From contig MFCX01000032.1 of the NCBI GenBank assembly GCA_001777055.1, positions 1 through 41,358 of the forward strand: a stretch of 41,358 nt of DNA, given 5' to 3'. Positions 516 through 34,195 of the stretch are shown in pieces; positions within the stretch are counted from its first letter, which is position 1, and every line of letters begins with the position of its first letter. The DNA comes from Candidatus Daviesbacteria bacterium RIFCSPHIGHO2_02_FULL_39_12 (GTDB taxonomy: Bacteria; Patescibacteriota; Microgenomatia; Daviesbacterales; UBA10151). The translations under genes were made by a program, and so were the position numbers. The notes under the pieces are model-generated. The model was not told the origin of the DNA. It was given only the letters and a program-made list of their open reading frames with translations, and did not search any database.

Positions 516-1289
516 ATGGAATCTGGAACTGACGGGTCTGCACCGCTACCTACGCCCAAATCAGAGTCTCGGTTAGGGGGGTTTGGTGGTATTAAAAAAT
601 GGTTAGAAAAACGAGGTCTTTCAAGACATGGACATTCACGACAGGAAGTTTTATCTGAAGATGCTCCTCAAACAATGAGCGAGGTAGTGACCTCTGTTTC
701 TCTACCTGAAAACTTAGTAAAGCCTGAAATTCCTATACCAGGTGTTGCTTCAATTCCCGAAGGCAATATCCGTCTGTTTCATTTCACATATCCCGAAAAT
801 CTTGACAGTATTCGGAGTCGCGGAATCACCAGCCCAAACGTAGACATAAATGAGAATGGGTTGAATAGTGCTCCCAATAGTACTTGGGTTTACTCAGACT
901 TGAATTTTAATGAACTCCCTGAATGGACAATTGGGATACCATTCCTTGAGTTTTCTGCACCACCCAACGAAATGGGTCCACACAATGCGGTTGGAAAAGA
1001 GGGTACCGCTAGAACGTTAAAGCCTGGAATTAATATACCCTTAGAAAGGATCGTTGCTATTCACGAGCCATGGCATGAAATGGTTCGTCAATCTAACAAT
1101 GGTGTTATTGATCCTGAATGGCTGAAATCCTATACGGATAGATCCGTACAAGTTGCTGGTACGAGAGGTACTCGTGGAGGCTACACTAATTATAGTGAAA
1201 TTGCTAGACAGAAGCAGTACCTTGAATCACAGGTTATTGAGGCCAATAAATATCTTAATTCCCCCGACAACCAGCCAGAGCTGGTATAA
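516..1289 (+). CDS. hypothetical protein (257 aa)
   Basis: ATG-initiated ORF in a compact same-strand block between ruvB and ychF. I recognise no motif. Confidence 0.55.
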   Translation: MESGTDGSAPLPTPKSESRLGGFGGIKKWLEKRGLSRHGHSRQEVLSEDAPQTMSEVVTSVSLPENLVKPEIPIPGVASIPEGNIRLFHFTYPENLDSIRSRGITSPNVDINENGLNSAPNSTWVYSDLNFNELPEWTIGIPFLEFSAPPNEMGPHNAVGKEGTARTLKPGINIPLERIVAIHEPWHEMVRQSNNGVIDPEWLKSYTDRSVQVAGTRGTRGGYTNYSEIARQKQYLESQVIEANKYLNSPDNQPELV

Positions 1290-1298
1290 TCTCAAAAT

Positions 1299-2435
1299 AT
1301 GGTCAAAGCGGGGATTGTGGGTCTCCCGAATGTAGGGAAGTCAACATTATTTAATGCCCTTTTAAAAAAGAGGGTGGCTTTGAGCGCTAACTATCCATTT
1401 GCTACCATTGAGCCAAATATTGGGGTTGTTGCTGTGCCGGATGCCCGCCTCAGCAAGCTAGGCGAGCTGGTAAAAGAGGAGGAACATATGGATCAAATGC
1501 CTCCCCTGGTACCGGCAGTAGTCGAATTCGTCGACATTGCGGGTTTAGTTAAAGGCGCTTCAACCGGCGCAGGTTTGGGTAATCAGTTTTTATCACATAT
1601 AAGAGAGGTGGATGCTATTTTGCATGTAATCAGGGATTTTGAGGATGTTGAAGTAATTAGGGAAGGCAGTATTAGTCCTGATGAGGATAAATTGACTATA
1701 GAAATAGAATTGGGGTTGGCTGATCTGCAGACTATAGAAAAAGTTCAAAGTTCAAAGTTCCCCGGCCTCGCTCCGCGAAGCCACGCCAAAGGCGGGCGAA
1801 GCGGGGCGGGCAAAGTTCAAAGCGACAATTTAAAATTCAAAGTTTCTGCAATAGAAAAAATCAGAGTAGTCTTAAATGCAGGGCAAATGGCAAATGCAGC
1901 AAATTTAACAGATGACGAACAGGAGGTGGTTCGGGAATTACATTTACTTACACTCAAGCCAATCTTATATGCCTATAATGTTTCCGAAGCAGAGTACGCA
2001 GATAAACTGCGAGATTCTTCGTTAATCACTCAGAATGACAAGTTTGTTATATGTGCAAAGGTTGAGGAAGAGCTAGCTGATTTGACAGAGGAAGAAAGAA
2101 TTGAGTACTTAAAAGAGTTAGGAATTGAGGAGACGGGTTTGGAGAGATTAATTAAAAAGGCCTACTTTTTTTTGGGGCTAATCTCATTTTTAACAGCTGG
2201 CAAAAAAGAAGTTAGGGCTTGGACTATAAAGCGGGGAACTAAAGCTCCACAGGCTGCAGGAGTAATTCATACTGACTTTGAGAAAAAATTTATAAGAGCA
2301 GAAGTTGTAGAGTATGGCAAATTAATAGAAGCAGGCTCTCATTCGGCTGCTAAAACAAAAGGCTGGGTAAGAACTGAAGGTAAAGATTATATTATGCAAG
2401 ATGGAGATGTTGTGGAATTTTTAATTGGGAGTTAA
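1299..2435 (+). CDS. ychF: ribosome-binding ATPase YchF (Obg-like GTPase family)
   Basis: G1 motif GLPNVGKST, DIAGLVKGAS and NQFL are present. The C-terminal TGS-type region reads AWTIKRGTKAPQAAGVIHTDFEKKFIRAEV. The helical insert region carries a repeat-derived segment (see repeat 1740-1845). Confidence 0.93.
   Translation: MVKAGIVGLPNVGKSTLFNALLKKRVALSANYPFATIEPNIGVVAVPDARLSKLGELVKEEEHMDQMPPLVPAVVEFVDIAGLVKGASTGAGLGNQFLSHIREVDAILHVIRDFEDVEVIREGSISPDEDKLTIEIELGLADLQTIEKVQSSKFPGLAPRSHAKGGRSGAGKVQSDNLKFKVSAIEKIRVVLNAGQMANAANLTDDEQEVVRELHLLTLKPILYAYNVSEAEYADKLRDSSLITQNDKFVICAKVEEELADLTEEERIEYLKELGIEETGLERLIKKAYFFLGLISFLTAGKKEVRAWTIKRGTKAPQAAGVIHTDFEKKFIRAEVVEYGKLIEAGSHSAAKTKGWVRTEGKDYIMQDGDVVEFLIGS
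1740..1845. repeat. in-frame composite repeat inside ychF: AAAGTTC heptamers flanking a GC-rich imperfect palindrome
   Basis: AAAGTTC x3 (1740-1760), then cccggcctcgctccgcgaagccacgccaaaggcgggcgaagcggggcggg, then further caaagttc / aaattcaaagtt copies. It translates as KVQSSKFPGLAPRSHAKGGRSGAGKVQSDNLKFKV. The 12-mer cctcgctccgcg (1766-1777) recurs in galU at 27464-27475. Confidence 0.7.
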
Positions 2436-3445
2436 AACTTATCTTTGGGCCGGAATTGATGAGATTCAATTTCATAATATGCTCCTTTTGTTACTCCTTT
2501 TTTTCTAATAAACCCACTATTTTGTAGCTTTTTCAAATCATAACGTAAGGTTCTTTCATTTACCGCCATAAACCTTCTTCTAATTTCATCAAAACTGACT
2601 AATTTGTGATCCTCTATGATACTTAGAATCTCAGCCCTCCTTGGAAGAAGGTAGTCTACGGCTTTTGATTGTTGTTTTGCTAAAACTTCTCTTTTGCCAT
2701 CTTCTGCGCTTTTAGCAATAACTTCCAGCATAAATTCCAAATAATCAGTAGTGTCTTTTTCTGGTTCATCTAAGGATCTATAATAATTATTTCTTTCTTG
2801 GTCTAAGTATTCCTCTAGGGCAAGTAGACCCTTCATTCCATAACCGCCTTTGGCCAAGATTGCCAACAAAAGTAATCTGCCAACTCTACCATTACCATCC
2901 AAAAAGGGATGAATTTTTTCAAAAATATAATGGGCAAGACAGGCTCTTATGGGAATAAATTGCTCCTTATTACTATTTATAAACATAAATAATTTATTTA
3001 TATGGGAGATAATCTGACTTGGTTTGGGAGGTAGGTAAATAGCAATACCAGCAGTGTTAAAAATAGCACTACTTTCTGTTCTGAATTTCCCCAAATCGCT
3101 TTTTTGAACAATTTCTTCTAGTACAATTTGATGAAAATGCAAGATATCTTTGAGACTTAACTCTTTTGCACTTCTTTGATAAATCAAATTTAAGCCTTTT
3201 AAAATATTGAACACTTCTTTTTTCTTTTGATCCTGAGAGGATGTTTTAGGTAATTGATCTAAGGTTAAATCGTTTCCTTCAATACGAGCAGAAAAAAGTG
3301 AGCTTTTAAGGGTGGATTGTCTTCTGATATTCATTTCAATTTCAGGAGGGATTGAAACAGAATTGATTACTTCTTTACTTGATTCAATTGAAGCAAGGAG
3401 TTGTGAAATTTTAGGGATGAGAGTGTATTTTGGAGGAATTAACAT
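2432..3445 (-). CDS. Fic family protein (putative AMPylase) with N-terminal inhibitory helix and C-terminal wHTH
   Basis: HPFLDGNGRVGRLL matches the Fic motif HxFx(D/E)GNGRxxR. SARIEG matches the (S/T)xxxE(G/N) inhibitory motif. The basic C-terminal tail resembles a winged helix. Confidence 0.9.
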   Translation of the reverse strand: MLIPPKYTLIPKISQLLASIESSKEVINSVSIPPEIEMNIRRQSTLKSSLFSARIEGNDLTLDQLPKTSSQDQKKKEVFNILKGLNLIYQRSAKELSLKDILHFHQIVLEEIVQKSDLGKFRTESSAIFNTAGIAIYLPPKPSQIISHINKLFMFINSNKEQFIPIRACLAHYIFEKIHPFLDGNGRVGRLLLLAILAKGGYGMKGLLALEEYLDQERNNYYRSLDEPEKDTTDYLEFMLEVIAKSAEDGKREVLAKQQSKAVDYLLPRRAEILSIIEDHKLVSFDEIRRRFMAVNERTLRYDLKKLQNSGFIRKKGVTKGAYYEIESHQFRPKDKF

Positions 3446-23421: not shown

Positions 23422-23503
23422 TGCCGAGAGAGGGAGTCGAACCCTCATGCTTTTTGGGCACACGATTTTGAGTCGTGCGTGTCTGCCATTCCACCACCTC
23501 GGC
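23422..23503 (-). tRNA. tRNA-Leu (anticodon CAA), class II with long variable arm, CCA not encoded
   Basis: The reverse complement reads GCCGAGG-TG-GTGGAATGGCAGACAC-GCACGA-CT-CAA-AA-TCGTGT-GCCCAAAAAGCAT-GAGGG-TTCGACT-CCCTC-TCTCGGC-A. The acceptor stem has 7 bp (one G-U), the T-loop is TTCGACT, and the anticodon loop is CTCAAAA. Confidence 0.9.
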
Positions 23504-26171: not shown

Positions 26172-26244
26172 CTATTCCGATACAGTTTCGTTAGGGAGGT
26201 TACTAATAGTGAATTTTGAGGGGAATTCTGATAAAATCTTTACT

Positions 26245-26808
26245 ATGGCGTTAAATGTAACAGAGCTGCGAAACGGCACTTTTTATAAAGAAGGGAATAA
26301 TATCCTGCTGGTTTTAATTTATGAACATGTTAAAACAGGCAGAGGCTCAGGTAATATTAAACTAAAGGTTAGAAACATTAAGACAGGAGCGGTAATAGAG
26401 AAATCCTTTATTACTGGCGCCAGAGTTGATGAGGCCAATGTTGAGAAGAAAAAAGCTCAGTTTTTGTACAGAGAGGGGGATACTTTTAACTTAATGGATC
26501 CAATTTCTTTTGAACAATTTTCCGTTTCCTCACAAGTAATTGGTGATCAGGCAAAATATTTAAAGGACGGACTGGAAGTTTTGTTAATTGTATCAGACGG
26601 TGAAGCTTTAGGATTAGAATTACCCATGAGCTTAGTTTATGCCATTTCAGAAACCGGGCCCGGTGAAAAGGGTAATACTGTTTCCAATGTATTTAAAGAA
26701 GCTGTTTTGGATAATGATTTGGTGGTTAAAGTACCTATGTTTATGAGAGTAGGAGAAAAGGTGAAGGTGGATACAAGGACCGGGGAATATGTAGAACGGG
26801 TGAAGTAA
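26245..26808 (+). CDS. efp: elongation factor P
   Basis: LRNGTFYKEGNNILLVLIYEHVKTGRGSGNIKLKVRNIKTG aligns with the EF-P domain I loop region. I prefer the ATG at 26245 over the upstream GTG at 26209. Confidence 0.9.
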   Translation: MALNVTELRNGTFYKEGNNILLVLIYEHVKTGRGSGNIKLKVRNIKTGAVIEKSFITGARVDEANVEKKKAQFLYREGDTFNLMDPISFEQFSVSSQVIGDQAKYLKDGLEVLLIVSDGEALGLELPMSLVYAISETGPGEKGNTVSNVFKEAVLDNDLVVKVPMFMRVGEKVKVDTRTGEYVERVK

Positions 26809-27926: not shown

Positions 27927-27955
27927 TTGACAGAATGAAATGTTGATACTATACT
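27927..27955 (+). promoter_or_regulatory. sigma70-type promoter of the radical SAM operon, predicting a leaderless or near-leaderless mRNA
   Basis: TTGACA (27927-27932), a 17-nt spacer, then TATACT (27950-27955). The ATG of the rSAM gene starts at 27962, 6 nt after the -10 hexamer. No Shine-Dalgarno is present. Confidence 0.45.
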
Positions 27956-27961
27956 CGGCCT

Positions 27962-29092
27962 ATGGCGATAGAAGAGGATCAAGTAAGATCCTCGGATATT
28001 TATAAAACTCTTTCTGCGCCACTTGATGTTCAGGTAGAGGTGACGACTCTATGTAATGAAGCATGTGTGCACTGTTATAATTTTTGGCGAGGAAAACAGT
28101 TCAAAAAAGAGGTTGCCAATTTCCCTCAGAAAACCCTACAGAAAGATCAACTTTCACATATTATGGCAGGGTTAATTCAGGATCAAGTTTTTAGCGTTAC
28201 CTTTACCGGAGGAGAACCATTTCTTTATAGATCAACAGTTATTGAGGGAATTAGGCAAGCCCGAGAAGGAGGCTTAGATTGTTCCTTAAACAGTAACTTA
28301 ACAACCATGACCCCTGCTACGGCAGATCGTCTTAGAAAGATGGGTTTAGGCTCCATACTTACGTCGTTGCATTCTTTTGATGAGGAAATTCATGATGCTA
28401 TAACTCAAAGAGAAGGATTTTTTAAACGTACAGTGCGTGGTATAAAGATCTGTCAAGAAGCCGGATTAAGTGTAGCAGCGAATATGGTAGTAACGAGAAT
28501 GAACCAAAATCAGGTTTTTGAGACAGGTGCATTTGTGAAGAAATTAGGGGTAAAATCTTTTTCAGCGACCAAAGCCACTCCTTGTTTAGGCGGAACTAAT
28601 TTTTCAGAGATTGGTATTAATCGGGGAGCATTTAAACAGATGCTTGAAGATTTATTAAGATTAGAAAAGGATGAAGGAATAGATGTTGACGTTTTAATGT
28701 CCTATCCACTTTGCGCTTTGGGGGATGGCAACCATTTCAGAAAATTTGCTGGCGATAGAAAAGGCATGGATCCATTAGCAACAGATTCTCTAGATGCAAG
28801 ATGCTCTCCGGTGGCAGAGCTTGATCATGCCCCATCCGATTTTTGGGAGAAACAACTTATTGTTACTCCTAATCTTAGACTAAGGAGAGAAAATTTTGGA
28901 GGAATTATAGCACCCCAAGGACGTCAACCAGTTTTTATTGATAATACCGCCTACGAAATTATTGACAAATTAAAAAACGCATCGTCACAGTTTTCTTTTA
29001 AGGGAATTGAACGTGATTTTAAGCTATCGCAAACTTCATCTGATTTCTTTTTTGCGCTCTTTAGAAAAGAGTTTTTTGGAGAAGTCCAATGA
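27962..29092 (+). CDS. radical SAM enzyme, putative peptide-modifying maturase with C-terminal PqqD/RRE-like segment
   Basis: CNEACVHC (CX3CX2C), FTGGEPFLY, SLNSNLT and SLHSFD are radical SAM core elements. The C-terminal LRLRRENFGGIIAPQGRQPVFIDNTAYEIIDKLKN resembles PqqD-type peptide-binding domains. There is no Cys-rich SPASM block. Confidence 0.85.
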   Translation: MAIEEDQVRSSDIYKTLSAPLDVQVEVTTLCNEACVHCYNFWRGKQFKKEVANFPQKTLQKDQLSHIMAGLIQDQVFSVTFTGGEPFLYRSTVIEGIRQAREGGLDCSLNSNLTTMTPATADRLRKMGLGSILTSLHSFDEEIHDAITQREGFFKRTVRGIKICQEAGLSVAANMVVTRMNQNQVFETGAFVKKLGVKSFSATKATPCLGGTNFSEIGINRGAFKQMLEDLLRLEKDEGIDVDVLMSYPLCALGDGNHFRKFAGDRKGMDPLATDSLDARCSPVAELDHAPSDFWEKQLIVTPNLRLRRENFGGIIAPQGRQPVFIDNTAYEIIDKLKNASSQFSFKGIERDFKLSQTSSDFFFALFRKEFFGEVQ

Positions 29093-29826
29093 GTAAGGAT
29101 ATAAACTCAGAGAAGGATTTAACAGGCATAGAATTAGGACCTCAATCAAAAGGTTTTGTTTCTTTTCTCTCAAAAGACCCAAGTCTAAATGGGGTTATAA
29201 AAGATTTTAGATATGGTTATATTAGAGCTTCAAGTTTTTTTAAAAAGAAAATTCCCGAAGTAAAACTCACTCTTGTCTATAGCAGGGAGGAGATGAATAA
29301 TTTAATTGGATATAAAACATCTAGTTGGTTTGTTGGATACGCCGATTCTTCTAGTAAAATATTTATGTTTAGCCCATCTGTTTTTGACAGAGAAAGCAAT
29401 CATAATAAAAAGGATTTTAGAAAAGTTCTTTGTCACGAAATCAGCCATTTATTTATTCGGCAAATTCATAACTCTTATGAACCCGTATGGCTTGAAGAAG
29501 GACTCGCTTATTATGTGGCGGGTCAAGAAAGTAGGTTAAAAAATAGCAACCCTATTTTTAATAATCCGAAAGCTTTATTCCTTATAGATACGAGGAATCG
29601 ATGGAATAAAACTATTGGTAGTCAGCCGGATGTACCATATGCGTTAGCATTTTTGTTGGTAGACTTTTTGATTAGTTGTTATAGTAAAGACAGGGTTATT
29701 AAACTTCTAATGTCTCTAGAGGGTAGATATAACAAAAAGAGGTTTTGCCAAAAATTTAGGAAGCTTTATGGAAAAGATATAAAGTTAATCTTGAAGGAAT
29801 TCTTTTCTAGACAGAATATTAAGTAG
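29089..29826 (+). CDS. HExxH zinc metallopeptidase (Peptidase_MA-like), putative leader peptidase
   Basis: VLCHEISHLFIRQIHNSYEPVWLEEGLAYYVAG gives HExxH plus a downstream Glu (gluzincin pattern). There is no signal peptide. The start overlaps the rSAM stop (ATGA). Confidence 0.7.
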   Translation: MSKDINSEKDLTGIELGPQSKGFVSFLSKDPSLNGVIKDFRYGYIRASSFFKKKIPEVKLTLVYSREEMNNLIGYKTSSWFVGYADSSSKIFMFSPSVFDRESNHNKKDFRKVLCHEISHLFIRQIHNSYEPVWLEEGLAYYVAGQESRLKNSNPIFNNPKALFLIDTRNRWNKTIGSQPDVPYALAFLLVDFLISCYSKDRVIKLLMSLEGRYNKKRFCQKFRKLYGKDIKLILKEFFSRQNIK

Positions 29827-29842
29827 AAAGGGGGTGAGAAAT

Positions 29843-30121
29843 ATGCCTCTAATAGAACTCGAGGGAACACCTAGTACCGCTGCTGCCAATGGCAGTAAGG
29901 ACGTAAGTGTGGTGCCTCAGTTTGTATCAATATTAAATAGTAAAGGATTGGAGTTGTCCATAGGGGAACAGGTAGAAACTGCATTTAGTCCTGGTCCACC
30001 GCTACCACCACCTTGCTTTGGTAAGCCACCACCTCCTTGTGTTGGTAGGCCACCAGAACCTTGCTATGGTAAGCCGCCAGGTGGGCCACCACCTTGTTAT
30101 GGTGGTTGCTATGGTCGGTAA
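29843..30121 (+). CDS. 92-aa putative RiPP precursor: leader plus Cys-Pro-Gly repeat core
   Basis: A Shine-Dalgarno aaaggggg lies 8 nt upstream of the ATG at 29843. The C-terminal 43 aa are PGPPLPPPCFGKPPPPCVGRPPEPCYGKPPGGPPPCYGGCYGR. The gene begins 16 nt after the peptidase gene. Confidence 0.6.
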   Translation: MPLIELEGTPSTAAANGSKDVSVVPQFVSILNSKGLELSIGEQVETAFSPGPPLPPPCFGKPPPPCVGRPPEPCYGKPPGGPPPCYGGCYGR

Positions 30122-30258: not shown

Positions 30259-30702
30259 TTAGTGGATGACTCTCAAAACTAAAACTAAACCTGTGACTGT
30301 GGCTGCCTGAGTTAAAATACCCCAAGGCAATTTTGCTGTTGAATTCGTTTGGTGACCAAAATTATAAAAATAGGAAAACGGAGGAAATTTCCAATTGAGC
30401 AGCCAGTAAGGAGCCTGTAATATATCCCATGATTCAGAGATCAAGATCGCCAGAAAAAGATAGGTAAGACTAACTGATTGGCCAAAAAGGATATAAGATA
30501 AAATTACCCCAAAAGTTAGATCCGCTATGCTTTGAAAAAATAAAACAAGCTTTTTTTTGCTTTTCCAGCCCCGGCCAAAATCCCAATGGGGAATCATATC
30601 GGCAATAGGGTGTGAAATGGCAACAAGCGGAATGCCTATGGCAGGGTCAGGTATGGCAGCGGCAATGCTGGCTCCTATTAATGCGTGTGCGGTAGCGGTC
30701 AT
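30259..30702 (-). CDS. small integral membrane protein, possibly YdjM/DUF457-like metal-dependent hydrolase
   Basis: MTATAHALIGASIAAAI...ISHPIADMIPHWDF with 4-5 TM segments. The start is taken at the internal ATG (30700-30702) because the longer ORF would overlap the lgt promoter region. Confidence 0.5.
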   Translation of the reverse strand: MTATAHALIGASIAAAIPDPAIGIPLVAISHPIADMIPHWDFGRGWKSKKKLVLFFQSIADLTFGVILSYILFGQSVSLTYLFLAILISESWDILQAPYWLLNWKFPPFSYFYNFGHQTNSTAKLPWGILTQAATVTGLVLVLRVIH

Positions 30703-30771
30703 ACGGCAGGAAACAGTGTAGCACACTTTGTCAATTTGATTCAACCTTGTTGTTATGGTAGGCTAAATATC

Positions 30772-32476: not shown

Positions 32477-32505
32477 TTGACTCCAGTCAAGTTTTATGAT
32501 AATAT
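32477..32505 (+). promoter_or_regulatory. candidate promoter of the AAA+ ATPase gene with flanking inverted repeat
   Basis: TTGACT (32477-32482), a 17-nt spacer, then TAATAT (32500-32505). TTGACTCCA (32477-32485) and TGGAGTCAA (32514-32522) are reverse complements. GGAG lies 7 nt before the ATG at 32526. Confidence 0.4.
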
Positions 32506-32525
32506 TTTTTGAGTGGAGTCAAAAT

Positions 32526-33737
32526 ATGGATATACTGATTGAAATTTACCACCGTCTTTTAAAAGAGACAGTGCCTTTATACAGAAGGAAATTTTACGAT
32601 GATTTTCAAATGGACAGCCGATTTGTCGGTGTCATCGGGGCCAGAGGAGTAGGTAAAACTACCTTTCTTGTAAACTACTTAAGGGATAATTATCTCAATT
32701 CTCAGCAAGCTTTATATATATCAGCAGATAATCTTTATTTTGTTGAACATAATCTTTTTGGGACAGTTGACCGGTTTGTTAAAGAATTTAATGGTCAGAT
32801 TATCTGCATTGATGAAATTCATAGATATAAAGATTGGGAGCAAGAGCTAAAGAATATTTATGATTCTTTTCCTAGGCTATCCGTGATTTTCTCGGGTTCC
32901 TCAAGTATTAATCTGGCTCACGGTAAAACTGATTTATCCAGAAGACTGGTTTTAAAAACTATGTATGGTTTTTCTTTCCGGGAATTTCTGGAAGTACAAA
33001 CTCATAAATCATATCCTTTGCTAACCTTTGATAATCTGATTGGTGATTATTACCGGTATGCTCAAAATTTTGCCCAAACGCCAAAGCTTTTGGGGTACTT
33101 AAAAGAATACCTGAAACAAGGCTACTATCCCACATTTCTCGAGCTTAAAAGCTATGAAAGCTATCAAAATACCCTCCAAAATATTGTTGATAAAGTTATC
33201 TACGAAGACATTAGCAGTTTTTATTCCCTTCACACATCAAATCTTGAGACTCTTAAAAAAATTATTTACTTTTTCGCAACTTCCCAGCCCGGCAGTATTA
33301 ATATAAACAGATTGGCCCAGAATCTAAAAAAAGATCATACAACCATTGCAGAATATATTCAAATCTTAAAAGATACAGGACTTTTACGCTTTCTTTTAAA
33401 AAACAAACAGGGATATGCTTTAGTGCGGGATGCTGAGAAAATATTCCTTGACAATACCAATCTTTTATATGCTTTAAACAGAGAAATAGGCAAAGAGCCC
33501 CCAACCGGTCTGATGCGTGAGATGTTTATTGTTTGCACTCTCCAAAATGCCGGATACTTTGTATTCTCAAAAGAGTCAGCAGATATTGAATCCGGCGGTT
33601 ATTATTTTGAAATCGGAGGAAAAAACAAAACTTCTGCTTTTATTCAAAAAAGCAGAAAAGGCTACATAATTAAAGATGATATTTTGATCGGAGATAAGAA
33701 AAACATCCCCCTTTACTTATTTGGGTTTCTCTCCTGA
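32526..33737 (+). CDS. AAA+ superfamily ATPase (COG1373-like, AAA_14 + DUF4143-type architecture)
   Basis: Walker A GARGVGKTT and Walker B-like ICIDEIHRY. The length and C-terminal part fit this family. The start is placed at 32526 because the promoter elements lie inside the longer ORF. Confidence 0.8.
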   Translation: MDILIEIYHRLLKETVPLYRRKFYDDFQMDSRFVGVIGARGVGKTTFLVNYLRDNYLNSQQALYISADNLYFVEHNLFGTVDRFVKEFNGQIICIDEIHRYKDWEQELKNIYDSFPRLSVIFSGSSSINLAHGKTDLSRRLVLKTMYGFSFREFLEVQTHKSYPLLTFDNLIGDYYRYAQNFAQTPKLLGYLKEYLKQGYYPTFLELKSYESYQNTLQNIVDKVIYEDISSFYSLHTSNLETLKKIIYFFATSQPGSININRLAQNLKKDHTTIAEYIQILKDTGLLRFLLKNKQGYALVRDAEKIFLDNTNLLYALNREIGKEPPTGLMREMFIVCTLQNAGYFVFSKESADIESGGYYFEIGGKNKTSAFIQKSRKGYIIKDDILIGDKKNIPLYLFGFLS

Positions 33738-33838: not shown

Positions 33839-34195
33839 ATGGACGAGGGATGGAAAATAGAGTATTATAAAACTACCGGTAAAAAATCTCCTGTGGAAGA
33901 ATTCATCTTTAGCTTAGATGTTAAAGCACAAAATAAAATTGTTGATATGCTAACTTTACTGAAAGAATTCGGGATTACTTTAAGTCTGCCTCACGTTAAG
34001 AAAGTAACCGGAACTTCTTTGTGGGAACTTAGAATTTTAGGCAGTAACAATTTTAGATTCTTTTATATCGTTCAGACAGGAAAGATTTTTCTGCTGCTGC
34101 ATGGATTCCAAAAGAAAAAACAAAAAACTGACCAAAGGAAGATAGATATAGCTCTTAAGAGATTAGCTGAGTATCAACTAAGATCTGGAAATTAA
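33839..34195 (+). CDS. RelE/ParE-superfamily toxin, HigB/Gp49-like
   Basis: About 118 aa, with SPVEEFI...LWELRI...FRFFY...LLLHGFQKKKQKT typical of Gp49/HigB-like toxins. It is followed by an XRE antitoxin (toxin-first order). Confidence 0.8.
   Translation: MDEGWKIEYYKTTGKKSPVEEFIFSLDVKAQNKIVDMLTLLKEFGITLSLPHVKKVTGTSLWELRILGSNNFRFFYIVQTGKIFLLLHGFQKKKQKTDQRKIDIALKRLAEYQLRSGN

Follow-up and report, generated by a model that had tools for sequence, protein, structure and literature searches.

A candidate precursor peptide for an uncharacterised family of radical SAM-dependent RiPPs in CPR bacteria

What is made from the short proline- and cysteine-rich open reading frame (ORF) at positions 29843-30121 (+) of contig MFCX01000032.1, and how might its product be modified? 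The window, by which we mean the whole stretch of 41,358 nucleotides that was analysed, comes from Candidatus Daviesbacteria bacterium RIFCSPHIGHO2_02_FULL_39_12, a member of the candidate phyla radiation (CPR; Patescibacteria). The ORF translates into a peptide of 92 amino acids, MPLIELEGTPSTAAANGSKDVSVVPQFVSILNSKGLELSIGEQVETAFSPGPPLPPPCFGKPPPPCVGRPPEPCYGKPPGGPPPCYGGCYGR*, and stands last in a cassette whose first two genes encode a radical S-adenosylmethionine (rSAM) maturase and an HExxH zinc peptidase. We consider it very likely that the peptide is the precursor of an uncharacterised rSAM-dependent family of RiPPs (peptides synthesized ribosomally and modified after translation) in CPR bacteria. 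The account developed below as a whole, in which such a precursor acquires thioethers and the copy of the system in the window is damaged, is the best explanation we have found and is probably correct.

To our knowledge, CPR bacteria are usually reported with almost no biosynthetic gene clusters. The Patescibacteria metagenome-assembled genomes (MAGs) of one survey contained none (PMC11613949). The cassette described here is compact and is missed by standard family models, and CPR metagenomes from groundwater and sediment carry it widely. With three genes and peptides of 40-95 amino acids, the family is a small and sharply bounded one that lends itself to experiment, and it has a possible role in CPR-host biology.

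The peptide and its homologues

The features of the peptide gene are as follows.

29830-29837, + strand: Shine-Dalgarno-like GGGGGTGA, 5 nt before the peptide ATG (sequence read directly)
29843-29989, + strand: leader region, residues 1-49, with PQFVSIL at residues 25-31 (29915-29935)
29990-30121, + strand: core region (residues 50-92) and the stop codon, with C-[FVY]-G occurring five times between proline-run spacers
30004-30079, + strand: tandem repeat of 24 bp (8 codons), 3.2 copies, 76% identity (Tandem Repeats Finder), underlying the first three units

Translation confirmed the ORF, the Cys positions and the five C-X-G units described in a first-pass annotation of this DNA, whose core interval, 29990-30118, corresponds to residues 50-92. 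The units CFGK, CVGR, CYGK, CYGG and CYGR begin with the five Cys, residues 58, 66, 74, 85 and 89, and take the form C-[FVY]-G between proline runs; three of these are CYG, an X-Y-G motif. Proline makes up 40% of the core, in several PPP and PPPP runs. The statement that two to five prolines precede each Cys does not hold for C74, which is preceded by PPEP, or for C89, which follows Gly. The core Cys codons alternate between TGC and TGT, as the same annotation had noted, and the units are indeed not recent slippage copies; the core is nevertheless a tandem repeat at the DNA level as well. Because the core is such a repeat and the number of units varies from three to six among homologues, the units are old duplications, gained and lost by duplication and loss, and do not reflect convergence at the peptide level.

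A word-indexed search of 5.8 billion proteins returned 19 homologues of the peptide, and an exhaustive hidden Markov model (HMM) profile search of 1.84 billion cluster representatives gave only 16 matches. Distinct homologous peptides with the invariant leader motif number 29. In the 19 homologues, P-Q-F-V-S-I-L is invariant in the N-terminal half and the number of PPPC-phi-G units (phi, hydrophobic) varies in the C-terminal half; members newly found by the HMM search carry three to six units, e.g. ...NCVRPCYGQPPPCYGSPPPCYGGR. The peptides thereby have a conserved leader and a variable core, PQFVSIL being invariant while the units vary in number and sequence. This motif, together with a RiPP recognition element (RRE) on the maturase, supports the earlier assignment of residues 1-49 as a leader. 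The polyproline form has so far been found in Levybacteria and unclassified Patescibacteria MAGs, with four to seven Cys per peptide.

Composition of the core units was tallied over 129 units of this polyproline subfamily. The residue after the core Cys was Y in 77, V in 41, F in 9 and I in 2, i.e. aromatic in 86 and Val or Ile in 43; C-Y-G accounted for 69 units, and 33 of the 86 aromatic units had Gly at X3, the third residue of an aromatic-X-X3 motif. Gly stood second after Cys in 113 of 153 cases, a count that takes in all Cys, including a conserved leader-proximal one, and the residue before Cys was usually Pro. C74-Y75-G76 was invariant in the first alignment of 20 peptide sequences.

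Two results bear on whether such ORFs are merely low-complexity sequence. All 12 distinct polyproline peptides, from 19 loci, lie in the rSAM-peptidase-peptide cassette (19/19 loci), and Pro/Cys ORFs were not found to be widespread without maturases, the profile matches being limited to the 16 mentioned. P0027, the only long Pro/Cys profile match, was rejected as an unrelated translated satellite-like repeat with a chance CFGQPP match.

No curated precursor family scored above its cut-off for the window peptide or seven relatives in a search to E <= 10. The nearest resemblance is to the uncharacterised TIGR04114 'Cxxx' Cys-rich repeat peptides of NCBIfam, which are likewise short, with a Cys every few residues and an rSAM neighbour; a relative from locus L014 matched that model weakly (12.8 bits, below the 20-bit cut-off), whereas the window peptide and six other relatives tested did not match it. 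Two homologues, P0024 and P0025, have intact leaders and cores that are out of frame (...PPLPPAILL and ...PLVLVSHHPLVLVSHH..., respectively), consistent with frameshifts in proline-codon repeats, either in vivo or from sequencing.

The cassette, its maturase and the wider clade

The genes and signals upstream of the peptide are listed below.

27927-27955, + strand: sigma-70-like promoter TTGACA-17-TATACT (11/12; found by scan), ending 6 nt before the maturase ATG
27962-29092, + strand: radical SAM maturase, 376 aa, with CxxxCxxC at C31/C35/C38; a SPASM-deleted allele
28856-29089, + strand: C-terminal RRE of the maturase, a beta3-alpha3 winged helix (AlphaFold2 domain model, Foldseek), retained in the window allele
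29089-29826, + strand: Peptidase_MA_2/gluzincin-type zinc metallopeptidase, 245 aa, with HEISH at residues 116-120, then WLEEG

Gene order (maturase, peptidase, peptide) is identical in four related loci, L001 (from a Candidatus Levybacteria MAG), L003, L004 and L005, whose flanking genes are unrelated, and is also found in L023-L025, where maturase identity is 46-54%. Adjacency and order are strictly kept across 31-87% maturase identity. A gap between genes in another locus, L008, proved to consist only of scaffold Ns. From the -35 hexamer on, the window, L003 and L027 have an identical promoter and 6-nt spacer, and the sequence further upstream is unrelated, so that the promoter marks the 5' limit of the conserved cassette. 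The cassette thus carries its own promoter, and the identity of this segment in three loci with unrelated upstream sequence suggests that the two move together. No Shine-Dalgarno sequence was found between the -10 hexamer and the maturase ATG (window 27927-27961, and the equivalents in L003 and L027), and the maturase, as first gene of the cassette, is probably leaderless.

Against six orthologous loci, the ratio of non-synonymous to synonymous substitution (dN/dS) was 0.14-0.54 in the peptide gene, while the peptidase gene gave 0.15-0.25 and the maturase gene 0.18-0.28; these values point to purifying selection on all three genes. Homologues with an invariant leader, these ratios and the constant neighbourhood together indicate that the peptide ORF is more than a chance reading frame. 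The central point of the first-pass reading, that the peptide is a RiPP precursor whose leader takes up about 49 residues and whose core contains Cys, is strongly supported: the peptide is always the third gene, after the rSAM maturase and the peptidase, the leader carries the invariant motif, and the maturase has an RRE. Synonymous divergence differed within the cassette: in comparisons of the window with L001, L005, L028 and L031, the proportion of synonymous differences was 0.15-0.28 in the peptidase gene vs 0.54-0.60 in the adjacent maturase gene, which suggests recombination or a mosaic origin.

The start of the peptidase gene overlaps the maturase stop codon. HExxH followed 10-25 residues on by (W)xxEG, the gluzincin signature, was present in 31 of 31 distinct orthologues. 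No signal peptide was evident by eye, and the protein had no sequence match in the PDB. Besides the polyproline subfamily, certain other subclades have the peptidase too, in some cases behind the peptide; many loci whose peptides have acidic cores lack it. From its context it is presumed to be a leader peptidase. A resemblance between GFVSFLSKD of the peptidase (29149-29178, residues 21-30) and QFVSILNSK of the leader (29918-29947, residues 26-35) was also considered; the conserved peptidase N-terminus might mimic the leader, either competing for the RRE or forming a bridge to it, but a profile-profile comparison aligned only 8 columns and was not significant (P = 0.07), and the idea was rejected.

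Orthologous maturases are 454-476 aa long, and their Pfam matches include Radical_SAM as well as SPASM. Invariant in an alignment of 60 sequences were the CxxxCxxC triad and another seven Cys; in the numbering of P0032, the maturase from L003, which is 87% identical to that of the window, the seven auxiliary Cys are C251, C267, C285, C320, C324, C330 and C334. An AlphaFold2 model of P0032 (predicted local distance difference test score, pLDDT, 90.2; predicted template-modelling score, pTM, 0.90) had SkfB, SuiB (PDB 5v1q), anSMEcpe, PqqE, TigE and ChlB as its best Foldseek matches. SkfB was also the best sequence match among solved structures.

The last approximately 80 residues of the maturase were predicted to fold as beta-beta-beta-alpha-alpha-alpha, with a pLDDT of 92.5 when modelled alone. 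The top 49 Foldseek matches of this domain were all RREs, with modest E-values (2e-3 to 0.8); they included the MccB clamp, McbB, leader-bound TbiB1/TfuB1, LynD/TruD, the PbtF RRE, TigE and SuiB. R-x-E-x-FG is invariant in the domain. There was no Pfam match to PqqD, even at E <= 1, and generic winged-helix proteins were all that turned up when the PDB was searched with a sequence profile; identifying the RRE required a structure search. On the predicted structure, the domain order is rSAM, SPASM, RRE, which is uncommon: in SPASM-containing RiPP maturases the RRE is usually N-terminal. C-terminal RREs are found in proteusin epimerases of the PoyD type, which are likewise rSAM peptide-modifying enzymes; these, however, lack auxiliary clusters (PMC8326336), in contrast to the invariant seven-Cys SPASM region of the CPR family.

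The clade extends well beyond the polyproline subfamily. Maturase relatives at E <= 1e-20 form at least 211 protein clusters, and all those with a named source are from CPR/Patescibacteria (Levybacteria, Saccharimonadales, Parcubacteria and Pacebacteria/Paceibacterota), where they are labelled just 'radical SAM protein'. When species-representative genomes were scanned, relatives turned up in Levybacteria, Tyrphobacter, Parcubacteria and unclassified Patescibacteria, and a metagenome scan confirmed related maturases at no fewer than 399 loci. In 78 of 92 evaluable loci, a small Cys-rich ORF began within about 100 bp of the maturase or peptidase end; the background among small ORFs elsewhere in the same loci was 2.6%. 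The leader motif of the wider family, [GQR]-[FY]-[VE]-[ST]-[ILM]-[LFVIM], is seen as GFESILD, GFVSLVE, GFETILD, YGYVSLL and PRFVSLLN. The cores are divergent (e.g. ...YCPDCYDCDYNCEECDNN; ...ACYCHCACACHV; ...CDCWCDW; ...GSCDCDAGPCYNCNCNCVIGCT; ...GSCYREPPPCYGVGKR) and the peptides acidic, with 18% Asp and 21% Cys. Among 53 such peptides, Cys was universal and 47 had at least one Cys-aromatic pair; a PP run was present in 5 and YG in 4. Since most of these peptides lack polyproline and Tyr-Gly, comparison across the clade indicates that both are subfamily-specific elaborations and that Cys is the common target.

Candidate chemistry on the core cysteines

Three chemistries had been put forward for the core: thioether formation at Cys, three-residue cyclophanes of the triceptide type on aromatic-X-basic motifs, and splicease-type reaction at X-Y-G. 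Thioether formation fits best, since Cys is all that these cores have in common with those of peptides served by orthologous maturases; the other two fit poorly. Thioether formation is chosen because Cys is universal, because the nearest characterised sequence relatives of the maturase form thioethers, and because multi-Cys cores are typical of sacti- and ranthipeptides. AlbA, StsB and SkfB, moreover, appear among the NCBIfam matches of the maturase. As the specific chemistry we put it forward tentatively.

The proposed sequence of events would be as follows. The leader motif would dock as a beta-strand on the C-terminal RRE of the maturase. The 5'-deoxyadenosyl radical formed by the rSAM cluster would take a hydrogen from some residue of the core, and the thiol of a core Cys, probably held by an auxiliary Fe-S cluster, would capture the resulting substrate radical. 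The predicted product is a thioether of the sactionine or ranthionine type, one for each C-phi-G unit, with the proline runs as rigid spacers between small rings. The HExxH peptidase would then cut off the leader, probably near the conserved (I/F)-S-P ahead of the core, around residues 47-50. The polyproline/Cys-phi-Gly core would be an unusual scaffold for a radical SAM enzyme.

The system resembles known sacti- and ranthipeptide pathways (AlbA/subtilosin, SkfB, CteB/thermocellin, PapB/freyrasin and SCIFF) in its rSAM, SPASM and RRE-containing maturase, in its compact cassette and in its precursor with a leader and a C-terminal multi-Cys core; SkfB is the best solved-structure match of the CPR maturase by both sequence and fold. 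It differs in that the RRE follows the SPASM domain instead of being N-terminal, in its 40% proline core of C-phi-G units that lacks Asp, Asn and Thr acceptors, and in the gluzincin peptidase in the operon. The named members of the clade are all from CPR bacteria, no curated model reaches its cut-off, and the thioether is here a prediction. We found no curated family and no searchable paper that covers the maturase or the peptide. The precursor family is new, the SPASM-then-RRE order is unusual and the polyproline scaffold is distinctive, while the combination of rSAM, SPASM and RRE in a maturase, the leader-core precursor and the logic of a leader peptidase are known.

Several observations weigh against the thioether reading. 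The maturase comes near no NCBIfam cut-off, and the best models are of the NirJ2/AhbD type (NirJ2, 150 bits vs a cut-off of 500). It falls outside the curated sacti- and ranthipeptide families (AlbA, 80.6 bits vs 850; StsB, 82 vs 625; SkfB, 60.8 vs 300), with AlbA, StsB, SkfB, WgkB, DynA and TIGR04103 all scoring at most about one-quarter of their cut-offs. The fold matches include enzymes of other chemistries that score equally well: SuiB (C-C bond formation), anSME (Cys oxidation), PqqE and TigE. The polyproline cores are without the Asp, Asn or Thr acceptors typical of ranthipeptides, and the Tyr that follows Cys in 77 of 129 units leaves room for a Tyr-directed reaction in this subfamily. 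Finally, further conserved genes, such as transporter, immunity and PlpY-like genes, were looked for, and none recurs with the cassette; of these, it is the missing transporter and immunity genes that count against the reading.

The Tyr-directed alternatives, i.e. excision of tyramine at X-Y-G by a PlpX-type splicease or formation of a three-residue cyclophane by a triceptide synthase, have some features in their favour. Like the enzymes of those systems, the CPR maturase is an rSAM/SPASM protein, and its presumed substrate has short Tyr-containing repeats; C-Y-G is frequent in the polyproline subfamily (69 of 129 units) and C74-Y75-G76 invariant in the first peptide alignment, Cys-aromatic pairs occur in 47 of 53 wider-family peptides, and TIGR04103, the PlpX-type model, matches the maturase over its full length, though weakly. 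In the window core, FGK, YGK and YGR fit aromatic-X-X3 with a beta-carbon at X3, and YGG does not; Gly has no beta-carbon. Against a cyclophane, Val or Ile instead of an aromatic residue follows Cys in 43 of 129 units, and X3 is Gly in 33 of the 86 aromatic units. Against splicing, the motif is not conserved among the substrates of orthologous maturases (YG in 4 of 53 peptides), TIGR04103 reaches only 56.7-72.3 bits vs 725, below many other SPASM families, and there is no PlpY-like partner gene. A Tyr-directed reaction of either kind is therefore improbable.

Somewhat less improbable, though still unlikely, is a different radical reaction at Cys or its neighbour that forms no cross-link, such as an anSME-like oxidation to formylglycine or thioaldehyde, or an epimerisation, like that by EpeE/YydG, of the hydrophobic residue next after Cys. 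anSMEcpe is among the best structural matches, and the auxiliary region has seven, not eight, invariant Cys, a number that points to atypical cluster ligation. Without exception, Cys is followed in the polyproline subfamily by Y, V, F or I, which resembles the Val/Ile targets of epimerases (PMC8326336). The sulfatase-type motif C-x-P/A-x-R is, however, absent from the window peptide, and no epimerase or anSME model was among the best 25 NCBIfam matches of the maturase. Multi-Cys cores, moreover, are a hallmark of cross-linked sacti- and ranthipeptides. About equally unlikely, in our judgement, is that the CPR clade installs an undescribed modification on the Cys-hydrophobic dipeptide found in almost all of its substrates, e.g. 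a cross-link of Cys to its neighbour. In the polyproline subfamily such links would yield tiny rings strung along a rigid polyproline-II rod, and, if this is true, the ringed peptides could act between episymbiotic CPR cells and their hosts; the system would then be among the first widespread natural-product systems assigned to a group usually seen as biosynthetically empty. Thioether formation thus remains the chemistry we prefer.

The SPASM-deleted allele and neighbouring genes

The first-pass annotation had overlooked that the window allele lacks SPASM. The junction lies within the maturase gene.

28741-28749, + strand: deletion junction AAAATTTGC; relative to L003, 234 bp (78 codons) are missing between two AAA(A/G)TTTGC copies

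The window maturase has exactly 78 residues fewer than four orthologues, with the break at ...HFR / KFAGD..., and six of the seven invariant auxiliary-cluster Cys fall within the lost, in-frame 234-bp segment. The orthologues accordingly have the SPASM domain of a sacti- or ranthipeptide maturase and the window allele does not. The same 376-aa allele is present in assemblies L006 and L007, which are independent and come from other samples; an assembly artefact is ruled out, as these were made with different assemblers. The SPASM-less allele occurs only in the strain cluster of the window, with near-identical variants (P0050), and the other relatives examined are intact. P0040 (377 aa), a candidate for a second SPASM-less allele, turned out to be an N-terminally truncated fragment at a contig edge with its SPASM intact.

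In enzymes of the AlbA type, auxiliary-cluster mutants retain SAM cleavage and do not cross-link. Because of this, the window maturase is probably inactive for maturation, and on balance we take the allele to be non-functional. With SPASM gone, cross-linking in the window genome has probably been lost or changed, and early decay of the locus is likely. The rest of the system (rSAM core, RRE, peptidase and peptide) is intact and dN/dS has not yet risen, which makes a recent deletion probable. On the other side, the remaining fragments of the window maturase still show a dN/dS of 0.18-0.28, a range that does not itself indicate decay. Either way, the SPASM-deleted allele is a natural experiment on the function of the auxiliary clusters.

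The damaged allele also bears on the least probable alternative, that the peptide is an unmodified Cys/Pro-rich metal-binding or structural peptide, or that the cassette in the window genome is a functionless remnant. The absence of SPASM and of a recurring transporter would be in keeping with this, as would the metal and redox genes beside two related cassettes, and Cys-rich acidic cores could chelate metals. On the other hand, adjacency and gene order are kept across 31-87% maturase identity, and a dedicated RRE together with a conserved leader motif implies recognition of the peptide by the enzyme. The metal and redox neighbours, furthermore, differ between L001, L003, L004 and L005. We regard this alternative as very unlikely and retain the reading of the peptide as a maturase substrate.

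Beside the L001 cassette (718-3080), the neighbours in question are a copper-type P-type ATPase (HMBD) together with a YHS-domain gene; beside the L004 cassette (384-1749), they are thioredoxin and thioredoxin reductase. Though not conserved, they are a hint that the Cys-rich peptides may have a metal or redox role. In two other related loci a second radical SAM gene stands next to the cassette (L024, 768-2367, -; L025, 1255-2250, +); that of L024 is divergently oriented and comes with a small Cys-rich ORF of its own (...GGCYDGPECDECDPSPL). These second genes may represent paired or duplicated maturation systems.

Within the window, an elongation factor P gene (26209-26808, +) lies two genes upstream of the proline-rich peptide. 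Sequences of the PPP/PPPP type need EF-P for their translation. As efp does not adjoin the cassette in L001, L003, L004 or L005, its proximity here is probably coincidence. The peptide gene is followed directly, on the other strand, by a hydrophobic ORF of 161 aa (30259-30744, -); Pfam gave no match to it at E <= 1, and contigs of the window's own strain were the only place where it was found. The only match in the window at the Rfam gathering score is a tRNA gene (23422-23503, -). Beyond the 161-aa ORF lie genes for an AAA_14/DUF4143 ATPase (32496-33737, +) and for a member of the Gp49 (HigB-like) family (33839-34195, +), the latter annotated in matching contigs.

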